Shown here piece by piece: positions 9,001 to 49,408 of a stretch of DNA of 54,453 bases. The translations under genes and the position numbers were made by a program. The stretch is taken from positions 1-54,453 of the forward strand of contig JBNGCP010000016.1 in assembly GCA_049974845.1 (NCBI GenBank). Direction: 5' to 3'. A model generated the notes under the pieces. That model was not told the DNA's origin. It saw only the letters and a program-made list of their open reading frames with translations, and did not search any database. The stretch is from Anaerolineae bacterium (GTDB lineage Bacteria; Chloroflexota; Anaerolineae; B4-G1; SLSP01). The stretch's first letter is position 1. Every line of letters starts with the position of its first letter.

Positions 9001-9028
9001 CACAATGACACTTCGACAGGATAAGCTG

Positions 9029-12725: not shown

Positions 12726-12784
12726 CTAACGGGCGGCATAGGATCAGAAATCGGTATGCAGGCGCCCGCAGTAAGGAGTGGAGG

Positions 12785-18585: not shown

Positions 18586-18679
18586 CTAGGGAACAGGCTT
18601 GTCGGAGTTGGGGTCGGCACTCACCGTTCTGTCTGTAGCCGCCCTCGGGGAGGGAGCTTTGACCGGAGAGGAACGTGCG

Positions 18680-20683: not shown

Positions 20684-20700
20684 GAGGTAAGCAAGCGACG

Positions 20701-21480: not shown

Positions 21481-22241
21481 CGCAGCAGATGGTCCTCGAT
21501 GCTCGCGAGAACATCTTCCACGGGGTCGTGGTGGATCCGGCAAGCCTGCCGCGCGATTCCGACAGATTTGCGGACCAACTGTGCTGCTCACTGGAGGCCT
21601 GGCGGGACGAGGGATACAAGGTTGCCTGGCTGGAGATCCCCATCGAGCGCGCGGCGCTGATCCCCGCGGCGGTGACGGCGGGTTTCGTCTTTCACCACAG
21701 CGAGCCAGATCACGTGGTGATGACGTGCCGTCTGGAGCCGGACGCGATGGTCCCGCTCCACCCGACGCACTACATCGGCGCCGGGGGGCTGGTGCTGAAC
21801 ACACGGCAGGAGTTGCTGGTGATCTGGGAGCGCGTGCATCGTCATCGTCGCCCGCACTACTACAAGCTGCCGGGCGGGGCGCTCAAGCCGGGCGAGCATC
21901 TCGTCGAGGGCGTGAAACGCGAGGTGTGGGAGGAGACGGGCATCGAGACACGGTTCCGAGCGCTGATGGGGTTTCGTCATTGGCACGGCTACCGCTTCGG
22001 GAAGTCTGACATCTACTTCATCTGTCGCCTCGATCCGCTGACCGAGGAGATTCGCATCCAGGAGTCGGAGATCCTGGAGGGTCGGTGGATGCCGGTGGCG
22101 GCTTTTCTGGGCCACGAGCAGGTGGGCGTGTTCAATAAGCGCATGGTGGCGGCGGCTCTGGAGGGGACCGGGCTGGTACCGGCATCGTTTGAGGGGTACG
22201 AGGTCAGCCCGGAGACGCACGAGATCTTTGTGCCGGAATAG
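21477..22241 (+). CDS. Nudix hydrolase, NUDT6/plant NUDT2-like with N-terminal extension
   Basis: Nudix box GGALKPGEHLVEGVKREVWEETG; GFVFHH, THYIGAGG, FRHWH, FGKSDIYF; ATGA coupling to the upstream gene. Confidence 0.9.
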   Translation: MTQQMVLDARENIFHGVVVDPASLPRDSDRFADQLCCSLEAWRDEGYKVAWLEIPIERAALIPAAVTAGFVFHHSEPDHVVMTCRLEPDAMVPLHPTHYIGAGGLVLNTRQELLVIWERVHRHRRPHYYKLPGGALKPGEHLVEGVKREVWEETGIETRFRALMGFRHWHGYRFGKSDIYFICRLDPLTEEIRIQESEILEGRWMPVAAFLGHEQVGVFNKRMVAAALEGTGLVPASFEGYEVSPETHEIFVPE

Positions 22242-22337
22242 GCCAGGTGCGATGCACCGGCTCCTGTCAACGGGGGGTGATCTGGCTGCCGGCCGAGTAG
22301 GCCCTGGATACGGTCCACCTGTGGCGTGAGGAGGCGT

Positions 22338-24896
22338 GTGGAAGATAGCGGTCCATCAGGTCGGTTTCCGTGGCCCCGCCCGCGGTGGTGGGCGCACCCG
22401 ATGCGCTGGGCGCAGCTTACGTTGGTCGAGAACGACCCGGCTGATTTCGACGTGTCGTTCTGGCTGGATACCTTCCGACGTATGCGGGCGCAGGGAGCTT
22501 GTTTGAGCGCCGGGGGGTACGTCGCCTACTATCCGACGGAGATTCGGCTCCACTATCGGAGCGCCTGGCTGAGCGATAGCGACCCTTTCGGCGCGTTGGT
22601 GGCGGGGTGTCGGGCGATGGGCATGGCGGTGCTGGCACGAACGGATCCACACGCCGTGCACGATGATGTCTATACTGCGCATCCCGACTGGATCGCCGTG
22701 GATGCGGAGGGGCAGCCTCGTCGCCACTGGTCGACGCCGGAGGCGTGGGTGACCTGCGCCTTAGGCCCCTACAACTTCGAGTTTATGACCGAGGTGCACA
22801 GGGAGATCGTGGCCCGTTACCGCGTCGACGGTATCTTCAGCAACCGCTGGGCGGGGCACGGCATCTGCTATTGCGAGCACTGCCGCCACAACTTCCGCGT
22901 AGCGACGGGGCTGGAGCTTCCGAGAACCCGAGACTTGGAGGACCCCAGCTGGCGTGCCTATATGGACTGGCGTCAGGAGCGGCTTTTCGCCCTGGCGGCA
23001 CGGTGGGATGCGGCGATCCGCGAGATCAGCCCGCACAGCTGCTACATCCCCAACTCGGGAGGTGGCGCGCTGAGCACGCTCGATATGACACGTCTGGCGG
23101 GGATGACGCCACTGCTCTTCGCCGACCGTCAGGCCCGCCATGGCATCCTGCCACCGTGGTCCAGCGGGAAGAACGCCAAGGAGTACCGCGCCGCTTTTGG
23201 GGACAAGCCTATCGGCGGCATCTTCAGCGTGGGGTTGGAGGAGGCCTATCGCTGGAAGGACTCGGTGCAGAGCGGGCCCGAGCTGCGGGTATGGGTCGCT
23301 GACGCGATCGCCAACGGCATGCGTCCCTGGTTCACGAAGTTCTCCGGTCGGATCTACGACGACCGCTGGTTAGGCGTCGTTGAGGAGATCTATAGGTGGC
23401 ACGCGCAGCACGAGCGTTACTGGCGCGACGCGGTGCCGGTAGCAGATGTCGGCGTCGTCTATTCACAGCAGACCGCAGCTTACTACGGAGGCGAGCGCGC
23501 GCAGGAGAGGGTCGAGGATCCCATTCTTGGCACCTATCAGGCCCTCATCGAGGCCCGGATTCCTTTCGAGATGGTGCACGACCGGTTGATGGATGCGGCC
23601 CACTTGGAGGGGCTCACGACCCTGGTGTTGCCCAACGTGGCGGCGCTCTCCGCCGCGCAGTGCGAGCAGCTGCGAGCCTTCGTGGCGCGCGGCGGCAACC
23701 TGGTGGCGACCTTGGAGACTTCGCTCTACAACGAAGTTGGGCGGCGACGGGACAACTTCGGCTTGGCGGATCTTTTTGGTGTCGATTTCGATGGTCAGGT
23801 GGAGGGGCCGCTGAAAAACGCCTATCTCTGGCTGGAGCACGACACCGAGACCGCTCCGGCCTTCCTCGCCGGGCTGGAGGACGCCCGGCGCATCATTTAC
23901 GGCGGCACGCGGGTTCACGTGAGAGCGCGGGAGGAGATGTTGTCGCCGCCGCTGACGCTGGTGCCGCCCTATCCCGACCTGCCTATGGAGGAGGTCTATC
24001 CGCGGGCAGCCCACACGACCATCCCTGGCGTGATCTGTCGTGAGCTGGAGGGAGGTGGACGAGTCGTCTACGTGCCGTGGGATCTGGCCCGTATCTTCTG
24101 GGAGGTGCTCAACGTCGACCACGGCAAGCTATTGGCAAACGCGGTGCGGTGGGCGAGCGGTGAGACGTTGCCGGTGACGGTGGAGGGGCCGGGCGTGCTC
24201 GACGTGACGCTATGGCAGCGACCTGATGCTCTGGTGCTGCATTTGGTCAACCTGACGAACCCGATGATGATGCGCGGCGCTCTCCGAGAGCTGTTGCCGG
24301 TGGGTCCGCAGCGGGTGCGGGCGCGGCTGCCTGCGGATACGGAGGTCTCCCGCGTCCATCTGCTCAAGGCTGAGCGTGACGTCGACTACAGGGTGGAGGG
24401 CGGCGTCGTCAGCCTGACGGTGCCGGAGGTGGTGGACCACGAGGTGGTAGCCATTGATCTGCGGGCGTCTGCCGACGTGGTATCGGGAGGAAGGATGAAT
24501 GAGGGGCAACGGTGGTACCACGGATCGCCGCTCAAGCTGACGGTGTTGCGCGCAGGAAGCACGATCACGCAGTGGCGCGATCTGGCGCGGGTCTTCTCGC
24601 ACAAGCCGGCGGTCGTCTCGGTGTCTGACGGCGACCCGGCAGAGGGCGAGCGGCAGATCCGGCACAATGGCGCGCGACCGGGGTATCTTTACGTCATCGA
24701 CGAGCCCGTGGGACCGGACGACGTCCAACCCCACCCGCGCACGACGATGGCGCCGGGCGACGAATGGCTGACGAATCGCGATCTGCGGCTGCGGTGCATC
24801 GCGGAGACGGCAGTGCAAGCGGAGGAGTTCCTTTCGGATGAGGAGATCGAGGCGCTGCGGCGTATACCGTCTGCCGATGACGGGCCAGCGGACTGA
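22338..24896 (+). CDS. GHL6-like putative glycoside hydrolase fused in frame to a C-terminal ART-like domain
   Basis: RWAQLTLVENDP, LARTDPHA, DGIFSNRW, CYCEHC and VLPNVAALS; hydrolase-like part ends HEVVAIDL, then an internal RBS+ATG at 24495 starts WYHGS.... Confidence 0.8.
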   Translation: MEDSGPSGRFPWPRPRWWAHPMRWAQLTLVENDPADFDVSFWLDTFRRMRAQGACLSAGGYVAYYPTEIRLHYRSAWLSDSDPFGALVAGCRAMGMAVLARTDPHAVHDDVYTAHPDWIAVDAEGQPRRHWSTPEAWVTCALGPYNFEFMTEVHREIVARYRVDGIFSNRWAGHGICYCEHCRHNFRVATGLELPRTRDLEDPSWRAYMDWRQERLFALAARWDAAIREISPHSCYIPNSGGGALSTLDMTRLAGMTPLLFADRQARHGILPPWSSGKNAKEYRAAFGDKPIGGIFSVGLEEAYRWKDSVQSGPELRVWVADAIANGMRPWFTKFSGRIYDDRWLGVVEEIYRWHAQHERYWRDAVPVADVGVVYSQQTAAYYGGERAQERVEDPILGTYQALIEARIPFEMVHDRLMDAAHLEGLTTLVLPNVAALSAAQCEQLRAFVARGGNLVATLETSLYNEVGRRRDNFGLADLFGVDFDGQVEGPLKNAYLWLEHDTETAPAFLAGLEDARRIIYGGTRVHVRAREEMLSPPLTLVPPYPDLPMEEVYPRAAHTTIPGVICRELEGGGRVVYVPWDLARIFWEVLNVDHGKLLANAVRWASGETLPVTVEGPGVLDVTLWQRPDALVLHLVNLTNPMMMRGALRELLPVGPQRVRARLPADTEVSRVHLLKAERDVDYRVEGGVVSLTVPEVVDHEVVAIDLRASADVVSGGRMNEGQRWYHGSPLKLTVLRAGSTITQWRDLARVFSHKPAVVSVSDGDPAEGERQIRHNGARPGYLYVIDEPVGPDDVQPHPRTTMAPGDEWLTNRDLRLRCIAETAVQAEEFLSDEEIEALRRIPSADDGPAD
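24495..24896 (+). CDS. putative stand-alone 133-aa protein, Arr/ADP-ribosyltransferase-like (internal start)
   Basis: GGGAGGAAGG RBS before ATG; WYHGS, GYLYVI and distal EW resemble ART-fold strands. Confidence 0.45.
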   Translation: MNEGQRWYHGSPLKLTVLRAGSTITQWRDLARVFSHKPAVVSVSDGDPAEGERQIRHNGARPGYLYVIDEPVGPDDVQPHPRTTMAPGDEWLTNRDLRLRCIAETAVQAEEFLSDEEIEALRRIPSADDGPAD

Positions 24897-36797: not shown

Positions 36798-38327
36798 ATG
36801 GCGAGCATGGATCCGAATAGGCCCAACATTGTCTTTGTGCTGACGGATGACCAGGGCCATTGGGCCATGGGATGCGCCGGAAATGATGAGGTGCAAACCC
36901 CCAACCTCGACCGTATTGCCAGAGTGGGCATACGCTTTGAGCATTTCTTCTGTGCCTCTCCGGTCTGCTCCCCGGCGAGGGCCTCGATCCTGACCGGACG
37001 GATTCCGTCGCAGCACGGCGTTCACGACTGGATCCGCAAGGGGAACCTTCTGGATGGCAGGGTACCGGGCGCCGGTTGGGACGACGACCGGGAGATCGAA
37101 TACCTCCGGGGCATGACCGCCTACACCGAGATACTGGCGGCGAACGGTTATCGGTGCGGAATCAGCGGCAAGTGGCACCTCGGCGACAGCCTCAATCCTC
37201 AGAAAGGATTCTCCTACTGGCACATCTTCCCCTACGGCGGCGGCAGCTACTATGGCAGCCCCATCATCCGCGAAGGGAAGATCGATCGGGACCCCCGCTA
37301 TCTCACCGACGTCATCACCGAGGGTGGCCTGAGGTTTTTGGACGCCCAAACCGACGGCGACGCCCCCTTCTATCTGAGTGTTCACTACACGGCGCCCCAC
37401 TCACCGTGGCACGCGGGAGAGCATCCCCAGGAGCTCGTGGATCTCTACGCGGGTTGCGCCTTTGACACCTGCCCGGAGGTCCCGGGCGGGCATCCGTGGC
37501 AGATCAACAGCGCGCCGCGGGGCAGCGGTGAGCGGCGGCGAGAGCTGCTGAGCGGCTACTACGCCGCGATCTCAGGTGCGGATCGAGGGGTCGGTCAGAT
37601 CCTAACCAAGCTGGAGAAGATGGGTGCATTGGAGAACACGCTGATCGTCTTTACTGGCGATAACGGGATGAATATGGGGCATCACGGAATCTGGGGCAAG
37701 GGCAACGGCACGTTCCCACAGAACATGTACGATACCTCGGTCAAGGTCCCGATGTTGATCGCACGGCCCGGGCATGTGCCGCATGCGGTCGAGACGCAGC
37801 ACCTGCTGAGCCATTACGACCTGATGCCGACGCTTCTGGACTACCTTGGACTGGATAACCCGGTTGCGGACGACCTTCCCGGCCGGAGCTTCGCGCCGCT
37901 CTTGCGTGGGGATCCACTTCCCGAGCGTGAGCATATCGTTGTTTTCGATGAGTACGGGCCGGTTCGGATGATCCGCACGAAGGCGTGGAAGTACGTCCAG
38001 CGGTATCCCTACGGGCCCGATGAGCTCTACGATCTCGTCAACGATCCGAATGAGGAGCACAATCTGGCCGGCGATCCAGACCAAGCGGTTCGCAGGCGGA
38101 CGTTGGAGGCTGAGCTGGAAGCCTGGTTCGTACGCTATGCGGACCCGAGGCTGGATGGAACCCGGGAACCGGTGACAGGCAAAGGGCAGGTCGACCTGGC
38201 CGGCGTCGCCGGTGAGGGTCGCCGTGCCTTTGAGGACGACTGGTGGTACATCGACGAGGATGGCGTCCGACGGGATGATAAGGTCTGGTTCATTGGCAAG
38301 ATCATCGAGAAGAGAGAAAGGAGTTGA
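36798..38327 (+). CDS. sulfatase (Cys-type, formylglycine-dependent)
   Basis: PNIVFVLTDDQ, CSPARASILTG, GKWHLG, APH, GDNG. Confidence 0.95.
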   Translation: MASMDPNRPNIVFVLTDDQGHWAMGCAGNDEVQTPNLDRIARVGIRFEHFFCASPVCSPARASILTGRIPSQHGVHDWIRKGNLLDGRVPGAGWDDDREIEYLRGMTAYTEILAANGYRCGISGKWHLGDSLNPQKGFSYWHIFPYGGGSYYGSPIIREGKIDRDPRYLTDVITEGGLRFLDAQTDGDAPFYLSVHYTAPHSPWHAGEHPQELVDLYAGCAFDTCPEVPGGHPWQINSAPRGSGERRRELLSGYYAAISGADRGVGQILTKLEKMGALENTLIVFTGDNGMNMGHHGIWGKGNGTFPQNMYDTSVKVPMLIARPGHVPHAVETQHLLSHYDLMPTLLDYLGLDNPVADDLPGRSFAPLLRGDPLPEREHIVVFDEYGPVRMIRTKAWKYVQRYPYGPDELYDLVNDPNEEHNLAGDPDQAVRRRTLEAELEAWFVRYADPRLDGTREPVTGKGQVDLAGVAGEGRRAFEDDWWYIDEDGVRRDDKVWFIGKIIEKRERS

Positions 38328-38336
38328 GAATTACCT

Positions 38337-40394
38337 ATGGCACCGAAGAGACACTCGTATAAGCGACCGGCTTCGCTGGAGCGCTTCTACTACGGAGCGA
38401 CCTACTACCCCGAGCACTGGGCGGATGCTGAGCGCGAGGAAGATCCAGCTCGGATGGCGGAGGCGGGCTTCAACTGCGTCCGTATGGCGGAGTTTGCATG
38501 GGACCGCATGGAGCCGGAGGAGGGCGTCTATGACTTCTCCCTCTTCGACGAAACGATCCGGCGCCTCGGCGCCCAGGGGATTGACACCATCTTGGGCACG
38601 CCGACGGCGACGCCGCCGCGCTGGCTGACGCTGGCGCATCCCGAGATGCTACGGGTCGACGCCGACGGCGTCCCTATGCAGCACGGATCGCGACAGCACG
38701 TCTGCCCGAGCAGCGCAGTCTTTCGAGAGCATTCCCGGAAGATCACTCGTGCGATGGCTGAGCACTTTGCCGACAATGAGCACGTGATCGGCTGGCAGAC
38801 CGACAACGAACTGAACTGCCACTTCTCGGAGTGCCATTGCGCCAACTGTCAGGCCGAGTTCCAGGCCTATCTACGAAGCACCTACGGCGACGATATCGCG
38901 GCGTTGAACACGGCGTGGGGCAATAGCTTTTGGTCGCTCACCTACCGCGGGTTCGACGAGATTCCCACGCCCAAGAACAGTAAGCCTGCCTATGCCAATC
39001 CGGCACATCTGCTCGACTACTATCGCTTCATCTCCTGGAACGTGACGCGCTTCCAGCATGAGCAGGTTGAGATCCTGCGCGAGGTGCAGCCCCGCTGGTT
39101 CGTCATGCACAATGGCACCTTCGCGCACATCGACTACCGGGGGCGTTTCGGCGAGGACCTGGATTTCTTGGGCTACGACATCTACCCCTTCTTCGATCCC
39201 GATCCCGAGCGTCGCCCATTCACCCAGGCCTTCAATCTGGACCACACCAGAGCTTGGACGGGCAACTTCATGATCCCTGAACAGCAGTCCGGGCCAGGCG
39301 GGCAAGGGGGCTACTTCCACGACACCCCGGAACCCGGCGAGATGCGGCGCATGGCCTATACGTCGATCGCGCGCGGCGCCGACAGCCTGTTGTTCTTTCG
39401 GTGGCGCACGTGCCGTTTCGGCGCCGAGGAGTACTGGTGCGGTATCCTGGATCATGACAACATCCCGCGAGAGCGCTATAAGGAAGTTCAGCAGCTGGGG
39501 CAGGAGCTCAAGACCATTGGCCCTGAGGTTCTCGGCACGTCAGTGCACGTCGATGTTGGGATCGCCGCGGCAGATATGGACGTATATGACGCCCACGAGA
39601 GCCTCTCCCTCGGCCTGCCCTCTCCCAAGGACATTGCGCGGGAGATCCATGCCACGTTGATGAAGAATGGCTACGCGGTTGGATGCGTACATCCCTCCGA
39701 CGATCTGAGCGGTCTCAAGGTCTACATCATCCCGCACTGGGCGCTGTTCAAGCCGGAGTGGGTGCCGAATCTGGAGGCTTTCGTCGAGAACGGTGGGCTT
39801 CTGGTCATCGGCGCTCGAACGGGGACCAAGGATTGGCGGAATAACGTCGTGTCCGATACGCCGCCTGGCGTCCTGTTCCCACTCGCTCGCGTCCGGGTCA
39901 GGAGCTACGGCCACCAGAATGCCCCTGAGAAGCGGCCCATCGGCGTGCGGTTCTACCCGACGGGTGGACGGGCGCAGTCACAGCATTGGTGGGAGTTCCT
40001 CAACCCTCTGCCCGGGACGCGAACCATTGCGAGATGGGACGGTCGACATCTCTCGCTCAAAGGAGCTGTGGTCGCCCGGAAGGTTGGGGAGGGGAACGTG
40101 ATCTACGTCGGCACCTATCTCACGGCGCCGCTCGTGGAAGCGATGCTGCCGGCCCTGCAGGAGCGCTGCGAGGGGCTGACCCCTCTGTGGGAGGATGCCC
40201 CGGAGGGTGTCCACGCTGTGCTGCGAGAGGGCCCTGGGAAGCGTCTCTGGTTCTTCATCAACGACAGCGACCAAGCCGCGATCCTTCCCCGCCCTCCGGC
40301 GGGACGGGAGTTGATCAGCGGTAAGGAGAATCAGTCTCGTATATTCCTCAGCAGGAATGAGGTCGCGGTGATCAAAGAGATCCTGACCGATTGA
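38337..40394 (+). CDS. beta-galactosidase, glycoside hydrolase family 42
   Basis: YYPEHW, RMAEFAW, GTPTATPPRW, WQTDNE, FFRWR, GAEEYW-G. Confidence 0.93.
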   Translation: MAPKRHSYKRPASLERFYYGATYYPEHWADAEREEDPARMAEAGFNCVRMAEFAWDRMEPEEGVYDFSLFDETIRRLGAQGIDTILGTPTATPPRWLTLAHPEMLRVDADGVPMQHGSRQHVCPSSAVFREHSRKITRAMAEHFADNEHVIGWQTDNELNCHFSECHCANCQAEFQAYLRSTYGDDIAALNTAWGNSFWSLTYRGFDEIPTPKNSKPAYANPAHLLDYYRFISWNVTRFQHEQVEILREVQPRWFVMHNGTFAHIDYRGRFGEDLDFLGYDIYPFFDPDPERRPFTQAFNLDHTRAWTGNFMIPEQQSGPGGQGGYFHDTPEPGEMRRMAYTSIARGADSLLFFRWRTCRFGAEEYWCGILDHDNIPRERYKEVQQLGQELKTIGPEVLGTSVHVDVGIAAADMDVYDAHESLSLGLPSPKDIAREIHATLMKNGYAVGCVHPSDDLSGLKVYIIPHWALFKPEWVPNLEAFVENGGLLVIGARTGTKDWRNNVVSDTPPGVLFPLARVRVRSYGHQNAPEKRPIGVRFYPTGGRAQSQHWWEFLNPLPGTRTIARWDGRHLSLKGAVVARKVGEGNVIYVGTYLTAPLVEAMLPALQERCEGLTPLWEDAPEGVHAVLREGPGKRLWFFINDSDQAAILPRPPAGRELISGKENQSRIFLSRNEVAVIKEILTD

Positions 40395-40415
40395 CCTATG
40401 AGGTCCGGTCTGACG

Positions 40416-40449
40416 CAGAGCCCCTCGCTCGTTAGCAAGGGGCTCTGCG
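40416..40449 (+). terminator. terminator hairpin
   Basis: gcagagcccct / aggggctctgc after the GH42 stop codon. Confidence 0.7.
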
Positions 40450-40532
40450 ATTTAGGGTCTGCGTGACAAGAGACGCGTCATCGCAAACCTGACGATTGCC
40501 TAACGACTTAGTTAGAATGTTTGATCTGGTCG

Positions 40533-40561
40533 TTGACAAAACGCGCCTTCGATGTTATTAT
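40533..40561 (+). promoter_or_regulatory. sigma70 promoter of nrdD
   Basis: TTGACA-N17-TATTAT with an extended -10 TG. Confidence 0.8.
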
Positions 40562-40605
40562 GATGGCAGGCCAATGATGATTTGATTGCATCGGCCTTTT
40601 TTTGC

Positions 40606-40652
40606 CCCCCACATCTTGTGTCTTGGATGCGTCGAGAAACGAGATGGGGGTC
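40606..40652 (+). promoter_or_regulatory. tandem NrdR boxes
   Basis: cccccacatcttgtgt (40606-40621) and aaacgagatgggggtc (40637-40652), 31 bp apart, resembling acaCwAtATaTwGtgt upstream of an RNR. Confidence 0.75.
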
Positions 40653-40972
40653 ATACACGATAAATAAGCGATGCCGAGTCATTTTGCATTGCTTATTTCC
40701 TTCTGGCGGGCCTGGTTAAGAGCACCTCGCGAGCGAAGTCATCTCGGGCTGGGGACACAGCATGAGGCTCCGGTCGGGGATCCCAGGATGTGGCAGCGGC
40801 AGTCGTGGTATTCTGCTGTGAGTACGGTTCGCCCTCCGTTTCGGTCGCCGTCTTCAGAGACCTACGCTTCTGGGGCGTCTTGTTTTGTTTGCACTTCGAT
40901 GACCGCCTATAGCTGTTGACAATTGGAGCCGCAGGTTTGGCGCGGTGCAACGTGGAAAGGAGTGATCCTGGC

Positions 40973-43000
40973 ATGGCGGTTGAGCAGGTCATCAAGCGAG
41001 ACGGCGCGGTTGAGCCATTCGATCGCAAGCGCATCGAGGATGCAATTTACGCGGCGGCGCGAGCCACCGGCAATGGGGTGGGGCGGACTTGGGCGGAGAC
41101 GCTGTCGTGGGCGGTGACGGCGTTGCTCGATGAGCGGGTGAACAGGGCCGGCGAGATTCCGCACGTCGAGGAGATTCAGGACATCGTGGAGGAGGTGCTG
41201 GTCAAGTCCGGCAATCCCAAAGTTGCCAAAGCGTACATCCTCTATCGTCAGCAGCGCGCGCAGGCACGCGAGACCCAACGTATGCTGCTCGACTCGGAGA
41301 AGCTGGTCGACGATTACCTCCAACGCGCCGATTGGCGGGTCAATGAGAACAGCAACATGAATTACTCATTGCAGGGCTTGAACTTCTACCTGGCCTCCTC
41401 GATCGGAGCTCGTTATTGGCTTCATCGAGTCTACCCACGTGAAGTTCAGGACGCGCACATCAACGCGGATGTGCACGTCCACGATTTGGGCATGCTATCG
41501 GTCTATTGTTGTGGGTGGGACCTGCAGGATCTGCTGGAGCAGGGCTTTGGCGGTGTCCCGGCGAAGGTCGAGAGCAAGCCGCCGCGCCATCTGAGAACTG
41601 CGCTGGGGCAGCTCGTCAACTTCTTCTACACGCTTCAGGGGGAATCCGCAGGCGCCGTGGCGGTCTCCAACTTCGACACGTTGTTGGCACCGTTTATCCA
41701 CTACGATCGGCTCGATTACGCTCAGGTGAAGCAGGCCGTGCAGGAGTTCGTGTTCAACATCAATGTGCCCACACGGGTGGGCTTTCAGACGCCGTTTACG
41801 AACGTGACACTGGACCTCACGCCACCAGCGACGCTCGCCGACGAACCGGTGATCATCGGCGGCGAGCAGAGGGACGCCGTCTACGGTGACTTTCAGGCGG
41901 AGATGGATCTCATCAACCGTGCCTTTGCCGAGATCATGCTGGAGGGTGATGCACGGGGAAGGGTCTTCACCTTCCCCATCCCCACCTACAACATCACGCC
42001 AGACTTCGACTGGGAAAAGGCAGAGCTGGCCCCGATTTGGGCCATGACGGCGCGCTATGGCATTCCCTACTTCGCCAATTTCGTCAACAGCGACATGAGC
42101 CCTGAGGATGCCCGCAGCATGTGCTGCCGCCTGCGTCTCGACAACCGGGAACTGCGAAAGCGGGCCGGCGGGCTCTTCGCAGCGGCGCCGCTGACCGGGT
42201 CTGTGGGCGTTGTGACGATGAACCTGGCCCGGCTTGGTTATGTTGCGCGGAACGAGCGTGACTTTCGCGAGCAGCTAGAGCGGTTGATGGAGACGGCGAA
42301 GACGAGCCTGGAAATCAAGCGGAAGATGCTCGAGTCGCTGACACTGCGAGGCCTGTATCCTTACAGCCAGCACTACCTCCGGAACATCCATGCAGCGACC
42401 GGCGGGTATTGGTCCAATCACTTCTCAACGATCGGTCTCAACGGCATGAACGAAGCTTGCCTGAACTTCCTGGGGGTCAGCATTGGTCATCCCGACGGTC
42501 AGGCATTTGCCCTGCGCACGCTGCGGTTCATGCGGGAGGTCTTGCAGCGCTTTCAGGGCGAGACCGGGAATCTCTATAACCTGGAGGCTACGCCGGCCGA
42601 GGGCGCTACGTTCAGATTGGCAAGGTCGGATAAGGAGCGGTATCCTGACATCGTGACCGCAGGCACTGACGCCGCGCCCTATTATACCAACTCGACACAC
42701 CTGCCCGTGAACTACAGCGATGATTTGTTCGAGGTGCTCGACCTTCAGGACGAGCTCCAGACTCTGTACACCGGCGGGACGGTGCTTCATATCTTCCTAG
42801 GCGAGCAGATCGACGACTGGCGCCAGGCGCGGAGGCTAGTGCGCACCGTGGCAGAGAACTACCGCCTGCCCTACTACACGCTCACGCCGACGTTCAGCAT
42901 CTGCCCGGTGCACGGCTATATTGCCGGGGAGCACGAGTATTGTCCGTATGAGCATACCGCGGAGGAGCTGGCGCGGTTTGGCCGCGAGGTGCCGGTCTAG
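40973..43000 (+). CDS. nrdD: anaerobic (class III) ribonucleoside-triphosphate reductase, ATP-cone, lacking the glycyl-radical C-terminus
   Basis: ATP cone VIKRDG; ENSN, HVHDL, YCCGW, FTFPIPT, RSMCCRL, EATPAEG, YTGGT, SICPVHGY; stops before the RxxGY motif. Confidence 0.93.
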   Translation: MAVEQVIKRDGAVEPFDRKRIEDAIYAAARATGNGVGRTWAETLSWAVTALLDERVNRAGEIPHVEEIQDIVEEVLVKSGNPKVAKAYILYRQQRAQARETQRMLLDSEKLVDDYLQRADWRVNENSNMNYSLQGLNFYLASSIGARYWLHRVYPREVQDAHINADVHVHDLGMLSVYCCGWDLQDLLEQGFGGVPAKVESKPPRHLRTALGQLVNFFYTLQGESAGAVAVSNFDTLLAPFIHYDRLDYAQVKQAVQEFVFNINVPTRVGFQTPFTNVTLDLTPPATLADEPVIIGGEQRDAVYGDFQAEMDLINRAFAEIMLEGDARGRVFTFPIPTYNITPDFDWEKAELAPIWAMTARYGIPYFANFVNSDMSPEDARSMCCRLRLDNRELRKRAGGLFAAAPLTGSVGVVTMNLARLGYVARNERDFREQLERLMETAKTSLEIKRKMLESLTLRGLYPYSQHYLRNIHAATGGYWSNHFSTIGLNGMNEACLNFLGVSIGHPDGQAFALRTLRFMREVLQRFQGETGNLYNLEATPAEGATFRLARSDKERYPDIVTAGTDAAPYYTNSTHLPVNYSDDLFEVLDLQDELQTLYTGGTVLHIFLGEQIDDWRQARRLVRTVAENYRLPYYTLTPTFSICPVHGYIAGEHEYCPYEHTAEELARFGREVPV

Positions 43001-43040
43001 CGCGGGCGCTCAGATAGTCCATACGAAGGAGATCAGGATC

Positions 43041-43223
43041 ATGGTTGAGACAACAAAAGGATCGAAGCAGGAAATCAAGACTGAGGTGAAGGTGCCGTGC
43101 GAGGTCTACTCGCGCATCGTCGGATACCTTCGGCCCGTGCAAGCTTGGAACAAGGGCAAACGCCAGGAGTTCCTAGAACGGAAGACCTTCGATCCCTCGG
43201 TGACGGAGGAGTCCGAAGCCTAG
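43041..43223 (+). CDS. stand-alone NrdD glycyl-radical domain (60 aa)
   Basis: AAGGAG RBS, ATG; CEVYSRIVGYLRPVQAWNKGKRQEF. Confidence 0.88.
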   Translation: MVETTKGSKQEIKTEVKVPCEVYSRIVGYLRPVQAWNKGKRQEFLERKTFDPSVTEESEA

Positions 43224-43276
43224 GGGCGGACCGCCTGTGGCAGATGGGCTTGGCGGGTTGACATAGAAGAGACGGC

Positions 43277-43311
43277 GAGCCAGCGCGGTGCCGCCAGGCC
43301 CGCGCTGGTTT
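43277..43311 (+). terminator. hairpin between the Gly-radical ORF and nrdG
   Basis: ccagcgcgg / ccgcgctgg followed by TTT. Confidence 0.5.
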
Positions 43312-43340
43312 GCGTCTCTGTATAAAGGGGAATTGAACCT

Positions 43341-44060
43341 GTGGATATAGATCTGAGAGGGTGGGCAAGGACATCGCTGATTGATTTCCCAGGCCACATT
43401 GCCACCGTCCTGTTTACGGCAGGCTGCAACTTCAGGTGTCCGATGTGCCATAATGCCGATTTGGTGCTGCGACCGCGGTCATTGCCGCCGGTCGCCGTCT
43501 CAGAGGTGATCGACTTTCTGCAGCAGCGAGCGGGCAAGATCACGGGGGTGGTGCTCACAGGGGGGGAACCTACGCTGCAGCCGGGCTTGGGTTCGCTGTT
43601 GACGGCTGTGCGAGATCTCGGCTATGCCGTCAAGCTTGACACCAATGGCTACCAGCCTGAGGTACTGACGGAGCTCCTTGATGCGGGTCTCCTGGACTAC
43701 GTCGCGATGGACGTCAAGGCGCCTCTACCGAAGTATCCGCTGCTCGCCGGGATTCCCGATCTAAAGGCTGAGAGGATCGAGCGATCTGTGGCAGAGCTCT
43801 GCCGCCGGCGCGTCCCCTGTGAGCTGCGGACGACGGTGGTGCCCGAACTTCTGGAGCCAGATGACATCGAGGCCATCGCCAGATGGATCGCTGACCGGGA
43901 GCCACAAGACAAGCTTTCCTATGTTCTGCAGCAGTTCCGCAGCCAGGGCACGCTCGACCCCGAGCTGCGTGACGTATCTCCCTATCCGTCGACGACGTTG
44001 CATAAGATGGCTGACCTGGCACGGCGTTGGGTGCAGCCCGTTGCCGTGCGAGGCGTGTAG
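43341..44060 (+). CDS. nrdG: anaerobic RNR activating enzyme (radical SAM)
   Basis: SLIDFPG, GCNFRCPMCHN, TGGEPT, KLDTNG, AMDVK, RTTVVP. Confidence 0.93.
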   Translation: MDIDLRGWARTSLIDFPGHIATVLFTAGCNFRCPMCHNADLVLRPRSLPPVAVSEVIDFLQQRAGKITGVVLTGGEPTLQPGLGSLLTAVRDLGYAVKLDTNGYQPEVLTELLDAGLLDYVAMDVKAPLPKYPLLAGIPDLKAERIERSVAELCRRRVPCELRTTVVPELLEPDDIEAIARWIADREPQDKLSYVLQQFRSQGTLDPELRDVSPYPSTTLHKMADLARRWVQPVAVRGV

Positions 44061-44150
44061 GCCAGACACTCATTCCTCGCTGTCGTGACCACAGGTAGGC
44101 CCTGAACTTCCTGCGTGCTTGAGGGTACCGCATCCAAACTGCGCGAAGCT

Positions 44151-44178
44151 GGAACTTTGCCGGCTCCGGTGGCGTCTA
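44151..44178 (+). promoter_or_regulatory. putative ECF-sigma promoter of the macroglobulin gene
   Basis: GGAAC-N17-CGTCTA about 110 nt upstream of the start codon. Confidence 0.55.
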
Positions 44179-44287
44179 TGAGATGAGAAACGCCTGCAAT
44201 CCCATTGAAGCATCACCGGTCGCTGCCGTCGTCACCAGTGCGCTGTAAAGCGTACGTCGGCGTGGCAGCAGGAAGGAGAGCGTCCCC

Positions 44288-47200
44288 ATGGCCCGGAAAA
44301 GGTGGCTGGTCTTTGGCATCGGTCTGTTGATCCTCTCTCTTATCGGCAGTGCCATCGCCGTAGCTTTCTACATTGAGCATCTCCCCGAGCGTCTGAGTCA
44401 GCACGAGACGATCGTCCTCGGACAGTCACGCTTGGTTCTGGGCAGCACCGCTGCGCTGCGGGTGCTCGTACGTGACACGCGCGATGGCGCGCCTCTACCG
44501 GGCGCAAGGGTGAAGGTGCTTCTCCGTCCGACGGATGTGGGTCGCTCGGGCGCTGGGCGCGCGGTCTTCGAAGGGACCACGCAGGAGAACGGCACGCTCG
44601 ATGTGAGCTTCACGGTTCCCGATGATGGCGCTGGGGCGCGTGGCGCTGAAGCGCGTGGCGCCGAAGCGCACACACTCGTGGTGGAGACGTCCTCCGCGCT
44701 GGGCTCTGATCGTGTGGAACAGCCGGTCACCGTGGCCCGGGACTACCGGCTGTTGGTGACGTCAGACAAGCCACTCTATCAGCCGGGCCAGGTGATACAT
44801 CTGCGCGCGCTGGCCTTGGGCAGTTTCGATCGGCTTCCGGCCGCGCACCAGGATATCGAGCTCACGGTCGCCGATGGCAAGGGCAACACCGTGTTTCGCA
44901 AGACCGTGACGGCATCGGCTTTCGGCGTGGCCTCCACCGATTTCCAGCTTGCGGACGAAGTCAATGGCGGCAGCTACAAGATCACGGCGAAGCTGGGCGA
45001 CACGGTCTCCGAGAAGACAGTCACCGTCGAGCACTACGTGCTTCCGAAGTTTGACGTTGTGGTTGAGACGGACCGCACTTACTATCGCCCTGGCGAGCGC
45101 GTTGAGGGGACCTTGACTGCGCGTTACTTCTTCGGCAAGGACGTCGCAGGCGGCGCTGTGGCCTTGGAGGGCTATACCTTCGATGTCGAGCGCAACGTCG
45201 CCGTCCAGATCGAGGGCGAGACCGACGACGCAGGGGCCTTCTCCTTCGAGTTCGACCTGCCGGCCTATGTCGCCGGCAGCGAGCTGGAGGAGGGTCGCGC
45301 ACGATTCTACGTTGAGGCGCGGGTCACCGACCAGACCGGCCATACCGAGGTCGGTCAGCTTTCGCTGCCGGTGGCGCAGAGCGCCTTGGTCATCGACGCC
45401 ATTCCGGAGGGGGGCAGGTTGAGGCCGGGCGTCGAGAACATCCTCTACCTCCTCACAAGCTATCCCGACGGCGCCCCTGCGGAGGCCGCGGTGACGGTGA
45501 CCCTCAATGACACCGGCGAGCGGCTGGTTGTGCAGACGGGGCGTTACGGCCTAGCGGAGCTTCCGATCGTGCCTACCTCCTCCTACATGAGCCTCGTCAT
45601 CGAGGCGCAGGATGCCGCGGGCGCCCGCGCACGGCGGGCATTCTCGTTTGAGGGCGAGGGTGGCGACGACGCGGTGCTTCTCCGCCCGGACGGCGCCGTC
45701 TATCGCGTCGGGGACACGATGGTCCTCAGCGTGTTGTCCGCGCAGCGTCAAGGCACCGTCTACGTCGATATCGTGCGGGAGGGACAGACCGTCAGCACCC
45801 GGGCTGTCGACATCGCCGACGGACACGCCGAGATTGCCGTTGATCTCACACCGGATCTGTACGGCACGCTGGCGTTGCACGCCTACAAGATTCGTCGCAA
45901 CGGGCACATCGTGAGGGACACGCGGCTCGTGGTGGTTGACGAGGCCGACGAGCTCGCGGTGAGCTTGAGGGCCGGCGCGGAGACGTATCGCCCTGGCGAG
46001 GACGCCGATCTGCACGTTCGCGTGGGCGATGGGGCGGCCGCGGGCGTCCGGGCCGCGCTGGGTCTGGCGGTCGTCGACGAGTCGCTCTTCGCACTGGCGG
46101 AGCAGGACCCTGGTTTCGCTAAGCTTTACTTTATGTTGGAGCAGGAGTTGCTGACGCCCAAGTATGAGCTGCACGGATTCAGCATCCCTGACCTCGTTCG
46201 CGATCCCTGTCGTGAGGGTGGCGATCCCGAGACCTGTCCTCCACCGTTGCGCGGGGCGCAGACCGGTGCGGGCAAAGCGGCGCTGGCCTCGGCGCTCTCG
46301 GATGCGGATCCTTTCTCCCTGCGCGCGAATTCCCACGAGCAGGCCATGGCGCGAGCACGCACCCGCCAGCATCAGCTCTATGGCGCCTTCGCTGCCACTT
46401 TGGGCGGTATGTTTGCATTGCTGTCGGTTGCCACGATGGCGCTGAGCTTTGTAAGCGTGGTGCGTGATGATCGGTTCTGGCGCAGTCTTGGCCTCGGCGT
46501 CGCCACCTTGGTGGTGATGGGCTTGAGCCTGTTCGGGATCCTGTGGCTGGCCGATGAGGTGTTCTGGCGGCTGGAGGACCTCATCCTGACCATGGTGATG
46601 GCGTCGGTGGGCTGCGCTGGGGTCGTGGGGATCGTGTCGCTAATCGTCTCGGCGATACGTCGCCGAGACGGGCTTCTGGGCATCATGATCGTGCTGTTGA
46701 CGCTTGCTGTGGCGCTCGGCGTGGGCGCGATCTGGGCTGCCGCCAGGGCGGATGTCACGCCGCCTAGCTGGACCCTCTATGGGGCGTTGTTCACCAGCTT
46801 GTTGTTCCCGCTTGCTTACGTGGTGCGAGGCGCCGGTGATATCTGGCAGCGACGCGTGATCACCGGGTTGGCGGCGTTGGCGGTGGGAATCGCCTTGCTC
46901 ACCGCCACGACCACCGTCGTCGCGCTTACGACCATTGGGAGGGCTCAGACGGAGAACGTGGCGTTAGCGGAGCCCGGTATGTGGGCAGCAGATGCTGAGG
47001 CCCCGGCGCTGATGGGTCGTGCCGTGATGCAGGACGCAGCGGTCGCGGTCGAGAAGAGGGTCGAGGTCGAGGAAGCAGGCGCTGCACCGCGCGAGGAGAC
47101 GGCGCAAAGCTCGACCGCGCCCCGGCTGCGTCAGTACTTCCCCGAGACGATGTTGTGGCTTCCCGACGAGGTCACCGATGCCGATGGTGAGCTACGCCTC

Positions 47201-49291
47201 TCCTTCCCCGTCGCCGATAGCATCACGACATGGCGCGTGACCGCGCTGGCGTCGTCTCAGGATGGACGGCTCGGTAGCGCGACCGCACCCCTGCGCGTCT
47301 TCCAGGACTTCTTCATCGATCTGGATCTACCAGCCTCACTGACGGTGGGCGACGAAATCGCCGTGCCGGTCGGTGTCTTCAACTACCTGCCGGAGAGCCA
47401 GACGGTGCGACTGGAGGTCGAGGGGGCGGCGTGGTTCGAGCTTCTTGACGATCCTGTCAAGGAGATCCAGATCGCGCCAAATGAGATCGACGTCGTCAGC
47501 TTCCGCATCCGGGCGCGTGACTTCGGTAGACAGCCCTTTCAGGTGACGGCCTATGGCTCTGCCATGTCCGATGCCATCCGCAAGGAGATCCGGGTCTTCC
47601 CCGACGGCAAGGAGCTGCGTTTCAGCTCGTCGGACCGACTTTCGCCGACGGCTCCCGTCACTGAGCGCGTGCAGCTTCCCGCAGACGTGATCGCCGGGAC
47701 CCAGAAGCTCACGGTCAAGATCTATCCCGGCGTGGTCAGCCAGCTCGTCGAGGGGCTGGACGCCCTGTTGCGGATGCCCTATGGCTGCTTCGAACAGACG
47801 TCATCGGCCACCTATCCGAATGTGCTGGTGCTGGACTACCTGAAGACTACCGGGCAGACATCGCCCGAGGTGCAGATGGAGGCGGAGCAGTACATCAATC
47901 TCGGCTACCAGCGTCTGATGACGTTTGAGGTCAATGGAGAGCCGGGCGGATTCAGCCTCTTTGGGGACGCACCGGCGGACCCTATGCTCACCGCTTACGG
48001 GCTGCAGGAGTTCGGGGATATGAGCCGGGTCTACGATGTGGATCCAGCCCTCATCGCCCGCATCGCGGAGTGGTTGTTCGCGCATCAGGCGTCCGACGGT
48101 TCGTGGCAGGGCGTGGCAGGGTTCCACGAGACGAACCTCACCAACCAGACCGGGCGGATCCCGGTCACGGCCTTCGTGGTCTGGGGCCTGGCCGATGCGG
48201 GCTATGGCGACGATGGGCGCACGCAGAGGGGAGCGGACTTCCTGCGCGAGTCGGCCTCACAGGCCGATACCGCGTATGATCTGGCGCTGGTCGCCAATGC
48301 GCTCGTGGCGGTCGATCTCCAGACCGGCGGCGTGAGCTCCGCCACCGCAGCGGTGCTTGATCGCCTGGCCGGCATGGCGCAACGCGAGGGGACCTCGGTC
48401 TACTGGGAACCCGGGCGCGAGACGTATATGGGCGGATATGGGATCAGCGGGCGGCTTGAGACGACGGCGTCTGTAGCTCTGGCGCTGCTGCGCGCGGGAC
48501 ACGATCCGGAGCTCGCCAACGCCGCGTTGACCTACCTTGTGCGGAATAAGGATACCTTCGGTACCTGGGAGACGACGTCGGCGACGGTGATGGCGCTCAA
48601 AGCCCTCATTGAGAGTGTCCGAGCAGGCACGGAGGATGTCGACGCCTCGATCACCGTGATGGTAAATGGGGCTCAGACGCGGAGGGTGCGTGTGATGCCT
48701 GAGACCCTTGACGTCGTGCAGACCCTCGTCTTCGCCGACGCCGAGCTGGGTTCAGAGAATGAGGTGACCCTGGCGATGGAGGGGCGCGGGAGCCTGATGT
48801 ATCAGGTGACCACGAGCTATGTACTGCCCTGGGCATCGCTGGATCGCTATCCCGAGTTCGTCGGTGATCAGGACCTGGTGACCATCGACGTCGTCTACGA
48901 CCGCACCGAGCTCTCCGTCGATGACACCGTGGGCGTTGACGTCACGGTAACCCTCAACGAGCCCGAGGGCGCCGCAGAGCAGTCGATCATCGACCTGGGC
49001 GTTCCCCCGGGCTTCTCTGTGGAGACCGAGGACCTGGCGCGGCTGGTTGCCGGCTACCGGGATCTGCCCGAGGGCTATGTGGGTGCCAGGATCCGCCGCT
49101 TTGAGCTGACGGGGCGCCAGATCATCCTCTACGTGACGGATCTAAATGGGGCTGAGCCATTGAGCTTCAACTACCGGTTGCGGGCCAAGTATCCGTTGAT
49201 CGCCCAGACACCCGCTAGCAGCGCCTACGACTATTACAACCCGGCGACGGCGGGTGAGGTGGCGCCTACGACGCTGACGGTGGTGGAATAG
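44288..49291 (+). CDS. alpha-2-macroglobulin family thioester protein with N-terminal anchor and internal six-TM insertion
   Basis: SDKPLYQPGQ, EHYVLPKF, LAVVDES, RQYFPETMLW, DSITTWR, PYGCFEQT thioester, GGFSLFG, AYDYYNP; AAGGAG RBS. Confidence 0.93.
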   Translation: MARKRWLVFGIGLLILSLIGSAIAVAFYIEHLPERLSQHETIVLGQSRLVLGSTAALRVLVRDTRDGAPLPGARVKVLLRPTDVGRSGAGRAVFEGTTQENGTLDVSFTVPDDGAGARGAEARGAEAHTLVVETSSALGSDRVEQPVTVARDYRLLVTSDKPLYQPGQVIHLRALALGSFDRLPAAHQDIELTVADGKGNTVFRKTVTASAFGVASTDFQLADEVNGGSYKITAKLGDTVSEKTVTVEHYVLPKFDVVVETDRTYYRPGERVEGTLTARYFFGKDVAGGAVALEGYTFDVERNVAVQIEGETDDAGAFSFEFDLPAYVAGSELEEGRARFYVEARVTDQTGHTEVGQLSLPVAQSALVIDAIPEGGRLRPGVENILYLLTSYPDGAPAEAAVTVTLNDTGERLVVQTGRYGLAELPIVPTSSYMSLVIEAQDAAGARARRAFSFEGEGGDDAVLLRPDGAVYRVGDTMVLSVLSAQRQGTVYVDIVREGQTVSTRAVDIADGHAEIAVDLTPDLYGTLALHAYKIRRNGHIVRDTRLVVVDEADELAVSLRAGAETYRPGEDADLHVRVGDGAAAGVRAALGLAVVDESLFALAEQDPGFAKLYFMLEQELLTPKYELHGFSIPDLVRDPCREGGDPETCPPPLRGAQTGAGKAALASALSDADPFSLRANSHEQAMARARTRQHQLYGAFAATLGGMFALLSVATMALSFVSVVRDDRFWRSLGLGVATLVVMGLSLFGILWLADEVFWRLEDLILTMVMASVGCAGVVGIVSLIVSAIRRRDGLLGIMIVLLTLAVALGVGAIWAAARADVTPPSWTLYGALFTSLLFPLAYVVRGAGDIWQRRVITGLAALAVGIALLTATTTVVALTTIGRAQTENVALAEPGMWAADAEAPALMGRAVMQDAAVAVEKRVEVEEAGAAPREETAQSSTAPRLRQYFPETMLWLPDEVTDADGELRLSFPVADSITTWRVTALASSQDGRLGSATAPLRVFQDFFIDLDLPASLTVGDEIAVPVGVFNYLPESQTVRLEVEGAAWFELLDDPVKEIQIAPNEIDVVSFRIRARDFGRQPFQVTAYGSAMSDAIRKEIRVFPDGKELRFSSSDRLSPTAPVTERVQLPADVIAGTQKLTVKIYPGVVSQLVEGLDALLRMPYGCFEQTSSATYPNVLVLDYLKTTGQTSPEVQMEAEQYINLGYQRLMTFEVNGEPGGFSLFGDAPADPMLTAYGLQEFGDMSRVYDVDPALIARIAEWLFAHQASDGSWQGVAGFHETNLTNQTGRIPVTAFVVWGLADAGYGDDGRTQRGADFLRESASQADTAYDLALVANALVAVDLQTGGVSSATAAVLDRLAGMAQREGTSVYWEPGRETYMGGYGISGRLETTASVALALLRAGHDPELANAALTYLVRNKDTFGTWETTSATVMALKALIESVRAGTEDVDASITVMVNGAQTRRVRVMPETLDVVQTLVFADAELGSENEVTLAMEGRGSLMYQVTTSYVLPWASLDRYPEFVGDQDLVTIDVVYDRTELSVDDTVGVDVTVTLNEPEGAAEQSIIDLGVPPGFSVETEDLARLVAGYRDLPEGYVGARIRRFELTGRQIILYVTDLNGAEPLSFNYRLRAKYPLIAQTPASSAYDYYNPATAGEVAPTTLTVVE

Positions 49292-49375
49292 CGGCGAAGA
49301 GGCGGCCTCACGTGGGGGGATCCGCGTTCGATGGCTGCCCCTTGGCGAGAGCGGGATAAGCCCGATACACGAAAC

Positions 49376-49408
49376 GGCGCCGGATCATGTGTTAGGTGAT
49401 CCGGCGCC
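49376..49408. terminator. terminator hairpin between convergent genes
   Basis: ggcgccggatca / tgatccggcgcc 12-bp stem. Confidence 0.75.

Follow-up and report, generated by a model that had tools for sequence, protein, structure and literature searches.

The stretch of 54,453 nucleotides at positions 1–54,453 of contig JBNGCP010000016.1 of an Anaerolineae bacterium, here called the window, carries a gene for P0001, a 1667-amino-acid thioester protein of the alpha-2-macroglobulin (A2M)/TEP type with a bundle of six transmembrane (TM) helices inserted in its bait-region domain. The architecture of P0001 is essentially certain, and the best description of the protein is that of a eukaryote-type A2M/TEP whose multi-pass anchor acts in cis at the bait site. 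Judged from the family to which it belongs, P0001 is rather likely to be a membrane-integral covalent protease trap, with the linker that follows TM helix 6 as its bait.

A2M and complement-type proteins are the textbook example of protease traps and opsonins that are either soluble or tethered by a lipid. The presence of a multi-pass membrane domain within the bait-region domain, which is conserved across Chloroflexota and occurs in two other phyla, is undescribed in the literature searched, and no description of any kind of TM helices in an A2M bait region was found there, subscription journals and supplements being outside its view. A prior description, which the sequence-only reading from which the work began had named among the findings that would undo it, did not turn up within that scope. 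The part of 10.1101/2025.09.22.677704 that was available concerns an unrelated CAGE complex. The finding means that a membrane bundle is a further module which can be accommodated at the insertion site in the sixth macroglobulin (MG) domain, MG6, where A2M has its bait and C3 its anaphylatoxin domain.

Domain set and position of the membrane bundle

Six Pfam families lie above their curated cut-offs in P0001, in the canonical A2M/TEP order; MG3, at amino acids (aa) 249–323, is one of them. A stretch of 350 aa (aa 604–953) has no Pfam match, and no NCBIfam model matches the whole protein. The features of the gene are as follows, all on the + strand.

44288..49291, + strand: whole gene for the 1667-aa thioester A2M/TEP-type protein P0001 (open reading frame and Pfam domain set)
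44303..44371, + strand: N-terminal signal-anchor helix (aa ~6–28) after MARKR (hydropathy peak 2.6)
44750..45019, + strand: MG2 domain, aa 155–244 (Pfam PF01835, E 7e-23)
45680..46096, + strand: A2M_BRD match, aa 465–603, over MG5 and the N-terminal half of MG6, with ..GLAVVDES at its end (PF07703, E 7e-15)
46097..46330, + strand: pre-insert segment of the bait-region domain, aa 604–681 (alignment; modelled as helices with low pLDDT)
46331..46375, + strand: Arg-rich helix NSHEQAMARARTRQHQ running into TM helix 1 (one long helix with TM1 in the models)
46376..46465, + strand: TM helix 1, aa 697–726 (hydropathy, homologues, model)
46484..46555, + strand: TM helix 2, aa 733–756 (hydropathy, homologues, model)
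46577..46657, + strand: TM helix 3, aa 764–790 (hydropathy, homologues, model)
46670..46747, + strand: TM helix 4, aa 795–820 (hydropathy, homologues, model)
46769..46828, + strand: TM helix 5, aa 828–847 (the weakest, with a peak of 1.5 here and 1.8–2.8 in homologues; modelled as a helix)
46853..46939, + strand: TM helix 6, aa 856–884 (hydropathy, homologues, model)
46940..47119, + strand: disordered, hypervariable linker rich in Ala, Glu, Gly, Pro and Met, the candidate bait, aa 885–944 (pLDDT and variability)
47120..47416, + strand: second half of MG6, and MG7 (Pfam A2M, aa 954–1043; PRLRQYFPET from aa 945; PF00207, E 3e-25)
47735..48610, + strand: thioester domain (TED), aa 1150–1441 (Pfam PF07678 TED_complement, E 3e-43)
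47786..47797, + strand: thioester motif C-F-E-Q, Cys1167 and Gln1170 (sequence; invariant in homologues)
48125..48127, + strand: His1280 in GFHET (alignment to CD109 and human A2M)
48977..49249, + strand: C-terminal MG8 or receptor-binding-type domain A2M_recep, aa 1564–1654 (Pfam PF07677, E 2e-8)

These features bear out the sequence-only reading in its description of the protein: a full A2M scaffold with an intact GCFEQ, its CFEQ at exactly the coordinates given above; an N-terminal TM or signal helix that lacks a lipobox; six hydrophobic helices between LAVVDES (aa 593–599) and RQYFPETMLW (aa 948–957); and, after these helices, a bait-like linker rich in Ala and Glu. In a Kyte–Doolittle hydropathy plot with a 19-aa window, the N-terminal hydrophobic segment spans aa 5–32 and the six segments of the insert lie within aa 697–884. 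There is no Cys in the first 32 residues and therefore no lipobox, nor was a conserved AXA cleavage motif found at the N-terminus. The consensus N-terminus of 38 aligned homologues is MSRK followed by ~22 hydrophobic residues and YYE.LPE.LSQHET. GCFEQ (aa 1166–1170) is invariant in all 38.

The insert can be placed in the A2M fold by two landmarks, between which lie the bait-region domain of A2M and the anaphylatoxin domain of C3. The first, GLAVVDESLFALA, aligns with ..LRAVDQSVLLM of human A2M; the A2M_BRD stretch that ends in it, aligned to ..LRAVDQS.., is modelled by AlphaFold2 as beta strands. The second, PRLRQYFPETMLW, aligns with ETVRKYFPETWIW of human A2M, with PHVRKHFPETWIW of CD109 and with residue 16 of the C3b alpha' chain, so that RQYFPETMLW stands opposite RKYFPETWIW of A2M. 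The landmarks are ~345 residues apart in P0001 versus ~118 in human A2M. Since residue 948 is the one aligned with residue 16 of the C3b alpha' chain, the alignment puts the six-helix bundle at the same MG6 insertion site as the anaphylatoxin domain of C3.

The proteins of solved structure closest to P0001 are all eukaryotic. A sequence search of the PDB gave 54 matches at E <= 1e-5, the nearest being CD109 (E 1.2e-69), human A2M, A2ML1, insect TEP1 and C3/C4/C5. When an AlphaFold2 model of aa 441–1150 was compared by Foldseek, it matched CD109, C4b, C3, A2M and A2ML1, with the bacterial SaA2M and ECAM at ranks 41 and 43.

Between the first landmark and the bundle, the pre-insert segment consists of a conserved helix EQDPGFAKLYFMLEQELL, a subclade-specific Cys-x-Cys loop and a helix AGKAALAS. 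The loop, Cys-x(7-11)-Cys (DPCREGGDPETCPP, window 46163–46216, aa ~626–643), is a feature of the window's subclade, others having a short PVD.DP stretch in its place; on the outer side of the membrane it may form a disulfide. The Arg-rich helix NSHEQAMARARTRQHQ, at which an NS(H/R) motif is common in the family, probably lies at the membrane interface.

The orientation of the bundle is indicated by its loops. Across 39 aligned inserts the net charge is +2.4, +1.2 and +1.6 for loops 1–2, 3–4 and 5–6, and −1.2 for both loop 2–3 and loop 4–5, and the mean length of the cytoplasmic loops is 6–10 aa. This alternation is a positive-inside pattern, which argues for a six-pass domain with both its ends outside (N-out/C-out). 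The N-terminus of P0001, in which MARKR is followed directly by a helix, fits an N-in orientation, and an N-in signal-anchor together with an N-out/C-out bundle would leave both large parts of the protein outside. The natural variants of the insert have two, four or six helices, and none has an odd number. The earlier proposal that an even number of helices keeps both halves of an integral-membrane A2M outside thus holds up on structural grounds, with the loop charges, the N-in start and the even-numbered variants all agreeing with it.

Modelling of the bundle, which had been put forward as a check of the proposal, also came out in its favour. In the AlphaFold2 model of aa 441–1150 (710 aa, from a 37-sequence alignment), which has a mean pLDDT of 75.4 and a pTM of 0.44, six long helices at aa 682–893 (pLDDT 80–94) stand with beta-sandwich MG domains on both sides. 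Folded alone, the insert forms a confident six-helix bundle (mean pLDDT 91.4, pTM 0.81).

What the bundle is composed of argues against a catalytic or transport role. Column identity in the insert alignment averages 29% and nowhere reaches invariance; what the helix cores conserve is limited to Leu, Pro, Ala and Phe, with no polar or charged residue among the conserved ones. On these grounds an enzyme or a transporter was rejected, and the bundle is read, from the residues that it conserves, as a structural membrane module. Comparison of the 216-aa insert with known families and folds brought no known function from Pfam, the ESM Atlas, Foldseek or VIA-align, nor did NCBIfam for the whole protein. 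Pfam gave, at E <= 10, only DUF7937 (E 0.016, 14.5 bits against a cut-off of 31) and EamA (E 7.2); the ESM Atlas gave no usable match; and Foldseek gave nothing in the PDB at E <= 0.001. The best VIA-align match (Z 9.4, where ~13 is advised for helical bundles) was to designed helical bundles and is treated as a generic helical arrangement.

The linker directly after TM helix 6 and directly ahead of the PRLRQYFPETMLW motif is the least confident part of the model (pLDDT ~30). It is also the most variable, its mean pairwise identity being 0.19, compared with 0.25 for the helices and with 0.54 and 0.63 for the MG domains on either side. Among 37 sequences it is 27–65 aa long, and Ala, Glu, Gly, Pro, Val and Met are abundant in it. 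A2M baits are hypervariable, and this linker is a candidate bait on the strength of its position, disorder and variability.

Distribution and reality of the insert

The architecture is shared by many homologues, mostly from Chloroflexota, whether the insert is searched alone or in its A2M context, a comparison that the sequence-only reading had also proposed. A search with aa 620–950 only gave 41 protein clusters, mostly of 1628–1676 aa; the nine that carry organism names are all Anaerolineae or Anaerolineales. CFEQ is present in every cluster, and six hydrophobic peaks stand at the bait site in 38 of them, the other three (P0039–P0041, ~1500 aa) having two. A scan of one genome per species gave 80 loci, of which 73 could be scored (three were frameshifted and four were without an in-frame motif). 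Six helices were found in 43 of the 73. Two others (L025, L053) show five helices at a threshold of 1.6 and six at a lower threshold, L042 has four at the bait site, and L051 is a fragment that begins within the insert. As a control, the 26 insert-less loci of the same scan, two of them fragments, have 0–1 hydrophobic segments at the site.

The insert-bearing loci belong to Chloroflexota (Anaerolineae, Ardenticatenaceae, Thermoflexales and Caldilineaceae) and to two Vulcanimicrobiota and three Planctomycetota metagenome-assembled genomes (MAGs); the insert-less loci belong to Armatimonadota, Hydrogenedentota, WOR-3, Pirellulales, Cyanobacteriota and Acidobacteriota. With the insert columns removed and fragments and frameshifted loci excluded, 67 rows were placed in a FastTree tree with a midpoint root. 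In this tree one branch, with 99% SH-like support, splits the 45 insert-bearing from the 22 insert-less rows. The two-helix P0039–P0041 are nested within the six-helix Chloroflexota clade, which fits a single gain of the insert and a later reduction by four helices as the history of these sequences. The two-helix forms look as if an even number of helices had been lost secondarily. P0203, which is absent from the tree, also has two helices.

As far as can be seen, the bundle module is confined to A2M-like proteins. A profile of 39 inserts, run against 1.84 billion representative proteins, gave 126 matches at E <= 1e-3, 124 of them new. A2M flanks are present in 93 of these 124, and the other 31, which leave room for a free-standing form, are fragment-like and no longer than 339 aa.

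An artefact, whether a chimeric assembly, a mis-joined open reading frame or a soluble helical domain mistaken for a membrane one, has a probability close to nil. The gene of the window was found in assemblies from other sources, in which single contigs cross both junctions of the insert: one of 4266 nt from run X1 (an RNA library, with 3 differences) and one of 5011 nt from run X2 (DNA, with 10 differences). The 3' junction is crossed by contigs of two further studies as well. The GC content is uniform across the insert, and the same architecture recurs in dozens of independent assemblies from several phyla. A chimeric assembly, which the sequence-only reading had named among the findings that would undo it, and a mis-joined frame are contradicted by these observations. 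A buried soluble helical domain is spoken against by the six consecutive hydrophobic segments, with mean hydropathies of 1.5–2.7, and by the alternating loop charges.

Sequence near-identical to window positions 44100–49400 occurs in crude-oil and oil-field metagenome runs of three studies, including two RNA libraries; these are the contigs of public runs only, and presence in an RNA library is no proof of transcription.

Some relatives differ at the thioester itself. In 16 of the 80 loci one in-frame TGA stands in place of the thioester Cys codon (G-TGA-FEQ), and the frame runs on to a normal C-terminus.

TGA loci: L021, L022, L023, L024, L027, L028, L029, L033, L041, L042, L047, L049, L052, L053, L055, L080
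Example of the TGA codon: L024:13379-13381

In addition, 14 of 124 representative proteins end in ..P[FHYS]G, which indicates that their gene calls were cut at the TGA codon. In 14 of the 16 TGA loci a near-perfect palindrome with a 6–7-bp stem, of the GTACGTC-GGC-GACGTAC type, starts 13 nt downstream of the TGA; the stem of L028 is shorter, at 5 bp, and the sequence of L042 is different and shows no evident stem. The palindrome is absent from the window gene and from 14 of the 15 Cys forms checked, and one Cys form that is nested among TGA forms (L034) keeps a 5-bp remnant. A full-length SelA was found in all five TGA-form genomes tested (E 1e-133 to 4e-143); in the genome of the window, SelA has no more than a partial and weak match (48.7 bits). 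In the tree, TGA forms make up 13 of the 17 rows of one Chloroflexota clade, and L042, from Planctomycetota, stands separately. An alternative genetic code was rejected as the source of the TGA codons, since an in-frame stop occurs just once in every one of the 16 genes, and always at the thioester Cys. These forms are candidate selenocysteine, or ‘selenoester’, A2Ms, as judged from codon, palindrome and SelA, and no selenocysteine A2M was found in the literature searched. If real, the TGA replacement in sister clades would be a selenoester version of a thioester protein.

Possible roles of the membrane-held thioester protein

As a protease trap, P0001 could work as follows. The uncleaved N-terminal signal-anchor would place MG1–MG6a outside the cell; the chain would then span the membrane six times in the bait-region domain and return to the outside, where the 60-aa disordered linker would be followed by MG6b, MG7, CUB, TED and MG8. 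A foreign endopeptidase would cut the linker next to the membrane, and the cut would free the C-terminal half (MG6b-MG7-CUB-TED-MG8) to rearrange as in A2M, CD109 and C3. The buried Cys1167–Gln1170 thioester would become exposed and, aided by His1280, would acylate the attacker or another nearby nucleophile. The protease would end covalently tethered to membrane-bound P0001, whose two halves would be kept together through the split MG6. The six-helix bundle would serve as a structural anchor, holding the bait at the membrane by its N-terminal end.

The cell envelope gives such a trap a plausible setting. The genome from which the window comes (93% complete) has no match to Omp85/BamA or LpxC, to both of which the named control genomes do match, and the organism appears to lack an outer membrane. 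The Chloroflexota envelope is reported to be one without an outer membrane. Lacking this barrier, the whole cage would be on the cell surface, held there by seven helices. This is a concrete model of how bacteria without an outer membrane could hold a 180-kDa trap on their surface.

Several points weigh against the trap reading. Thioester formation, bait cleavage and trapping would follow from family membership only. The topology is derived from hydropathy, charge bias and AlphaFold2 and not from a dedicated TM predictor, and the pTM of the 710-aa model makes its domain packing uncertain. The N-terminal anchor alone would tether the protein, and anchoring is therefore no explanation for six further helices. 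The insert is also present in three Planctomycetota MAGs (L042, L044, L061), and Planctomycetota are generally regarded as a diderm phylum, so that lack of an outer membrane would not be the whole reason for it. His1280 is a residue of the C3/CD109 type and fits surface tagging as well as it fits trapping. Finally, relatives with a homologous bundle are apparently anti-sigma factors, a hint that the bundle may do more than anchor.

The last of these points leads to the idea of a transmembrane protease sensor, in which bait cleavage or thioester activation would rearrange the bundle, perhaps against the N-terminal helix, and pass a signal into or within the membrane, trapping being secondary. 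We regard this as unlikely for P0001, although its relatives lend it substance. Many of them have an N-terminal, cytoplasmic zf-HC2 (anti-sigma) domain, whose motif is present in 16 of 165 proteins (P0077, P0079, P0080, P0086, P0096, P0102, P0104, P0107, P0122, P0129, P0132, P0134, P0144, P0148, P0151 and P0160) and in two loci, and Pfam confirmed PF13490 in all four of the 16 that were scanned and in both loci. The genes at these loci are:

L025:452-6173: zf-HC2 A2M-like gene
L042:8790-14659: zf-HC2 A2M-like gene

In both loci, which are the two with flanking sequence, a gene for an extracytoplasmic function (ECF) sigma factor (Sigma70_r2 and r4_2) lies directly upstream, reaching up to the start of the A2M-like gene or overlapping it. 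A search from one zf-HC2 protein listed 51 proteins, a sample biased towards close relatives of the query, and the motif is present in 41 of them; P0166–P0196 and P0198–P0203 are also zf-HC2 proteins. Two of the 41 stop before the bait site. All of the other 39 carry TM helices there, 38 of them six and one two. Among the ten proteins that lack the motif, six helices are present in P0197, and 0–1 hydrophobic segments in the remaining nine. Many zf-HC2 forms end past MG7 and have no TED (~1160–1210 aa), and the automatic name given by JGI to several of these relatives is ‘anti-sigma factor RsiW’. A ..ALYAGP.GWL(T/V)GC.. motif stands right after helix six in the zf-HC2 clade (P0194, P0122, P0202) and is not seen in the window's clade.

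These relatives are a candidate family of protease-sensing anti-sigma factors, and give the strongest hint that the bundle can take part in transmembrane signalling. No anti-sigma factor with an A2M ectodomain and a multi-pass insert was found in the literature searched, and the part of PMC7406223 that was available makes no mention of macroglobulin. The zf-HC2 relatives offer a testable route by which extracellular proteolysis could lead to transcription.

P0001 itself is poorly equipped for such a role. It has no PF13490 match and only five residues, MARKR, before its first helix; its cytoplasmic loops are as short as those given above; no zf-HC2 paralogue was found in its own genome; and there is no sigma factor gene near the window gene. 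When open reading frames within 6 kb were clustered, no family was common to more than 4 of 32 related loci, and conserved gene partners or an operon were rejected on this basis. A coupling of bait cleavage to the bundle in the service of sensing, which the sequence-only reading suggested, is thus not supported for this gene, with its minimal cytoplasmic portion and lack of a conserved neighbour, and gains support in the zf-HC2 relatives, with their TM helices and, in two loci, upstream sigma genes.

A broader version of the sensor idea, in which the bundle is a transmembrane transducer and the whole family a bacterial receptor of innate-immune type, its outside bait/thioester switch being read across the membrane, is likewise doubtful. 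The output in the zf-HC2 relatives could, at a similarly low probability, be release of the ECF sigma factor and, in P0001, a change in the seven-helix assembly or in a partner. On this doubtful reading, a selenocysteine version of the thioester in sister clades would adjust how reactive the switch is.

A second alternative to trapping starts from the thioester chemistry. His1280 is aligned with a His in CD109 (VIHSEL) and with an Asn in human A2M (LLNNAI), and is His in 34 of 38 close homologues. The His of C3 and C4B makes an acyl-imidazole that reacts with hydroxyls. In those proteins it steers the acyl group to hydroxyls, which makes covalent tagging of nearby surfaces a live alternative: a membrane-held thioester, on a protein permanently bound to the cell, could join the cell to the carbohydrate or protein surfaces of other cells, a sheath or a substrate, in the manner of complement and with no inhibition of proteases. 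We consider such tagging or adhesion distinctly improbable, and more so than sensing. Retention of the His does not extend to the insert-bearing family at large, the disordered and hypervariable linker that occupies the bait position resembles a protease lure, and no anaphylatoxin, C345c or convertase-type partner was seen in the Pfam matches of P0001 or among the neighbouring genes.

The gene has nrdD and nrdG as its upstream neighbours; downstream, and on the other strand, are aldo/keto reductases. The upstream genes (window 36798–44060) encode a sulfatase, a GH42 beta-galactosidase, NrdD and the radical-SAM activase NrdG, and fit an anaerobic, polysaccharide-degrading lifestyle. Elsewhere in the genome there are three long open reading frames (2063, 2068 and 2018 aa) with weak TED/A2M matches, which may be bacterial-type macroglobulins of the same organism.

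G000:C76 ~7995-13787: long open reading frame with a weak TED/A2M match
G000:C28 ~18543-24839: long open reading frame with a weak TED/A2M match
G000:C5 ~86948-90229: long open reading frame with a weak TED/A2M match

Comparison with known systems

The characterised bacterial macroglobulins differ from P0001 in thioester, anchor or gene context. Type I A2Ms (E. coli YfhM/ECAM and Salmonella SaA2M) are described in the part of PMC5764988 that was available as having a CxEQ thioester, being paired with PBP1c, being held at the cytoplasmic membrane and acting as proposed traps for invading proteases. Their fold is related to that of P0001 (4u48 and 5a42, at the Foldseek ranks given above). In contrast, P0001 has no lipobox, no adjacent pbpC (none was found within 36.8–54.4 kb of the window) and no match to the bacterial MG-domain families of Pfam (bMG3 and others, E <= 0.01), and ECAM and SaA2M are absent from its 54 PDB sequence matches. 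The bait of type I A2Ms is soluble, whereas the bait site of P0001 has six TM helices. The type II A2M MagD of Pseudomonas aeruginosa, according to the same part of PMC5764988, has no thioester and depends on the TM protein MagB for its attachment to the inner membrane; its gene belongs to the mag operon (magABCDEF type). Like P0001 it is a bacterial macroglobulin whose membrane association matters, but P0001 has an intact thioester motif, carries its anchor in cis and belongs to no operon. The contrast with the YfhM and MagD types drawn in the sequence-only reading is thus upheld, the nearest solved proteins being CD109 and A2M.

With the class I anti-sigma factors of the RsiW type, it is the relatives of P0001 that share zf-HC2, a TM helix and an upstream ECF sigma gene; P0001 itself is unlike them in having neither the zf-HC2 domain nor the sigma gene.

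CD109 (PDB 8s3o, 9fx2, 9fx3) is the best match of P0001 both in sequence and in fold (E 7.8e-20 for the latter). Like CD109, a cell-surface-tethered member of the A2M family with a thioester and a bait region, P0001 is probably held at the cell surface and has a thioester motif, a candidate bait and a His at the 1280 position. The tether of CD109 is a C-terminal GPI anchor. Unlike P0001, CD109 is eukaryotic, its bait is soluble and there are no TM helices within its bait-region domain.

The complement proteins C3, C4 and C5 share with P0001 the order of domains, the insertion point in MG6, an acidic linker before MG6b and the C3-type His, although P0001 has no anaphylatoxin or C345c domain by Pfam. 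At this shared site the insert of C3 is a secreted four-helix domain, while that of P0001 is a six-pass membrane bundle.

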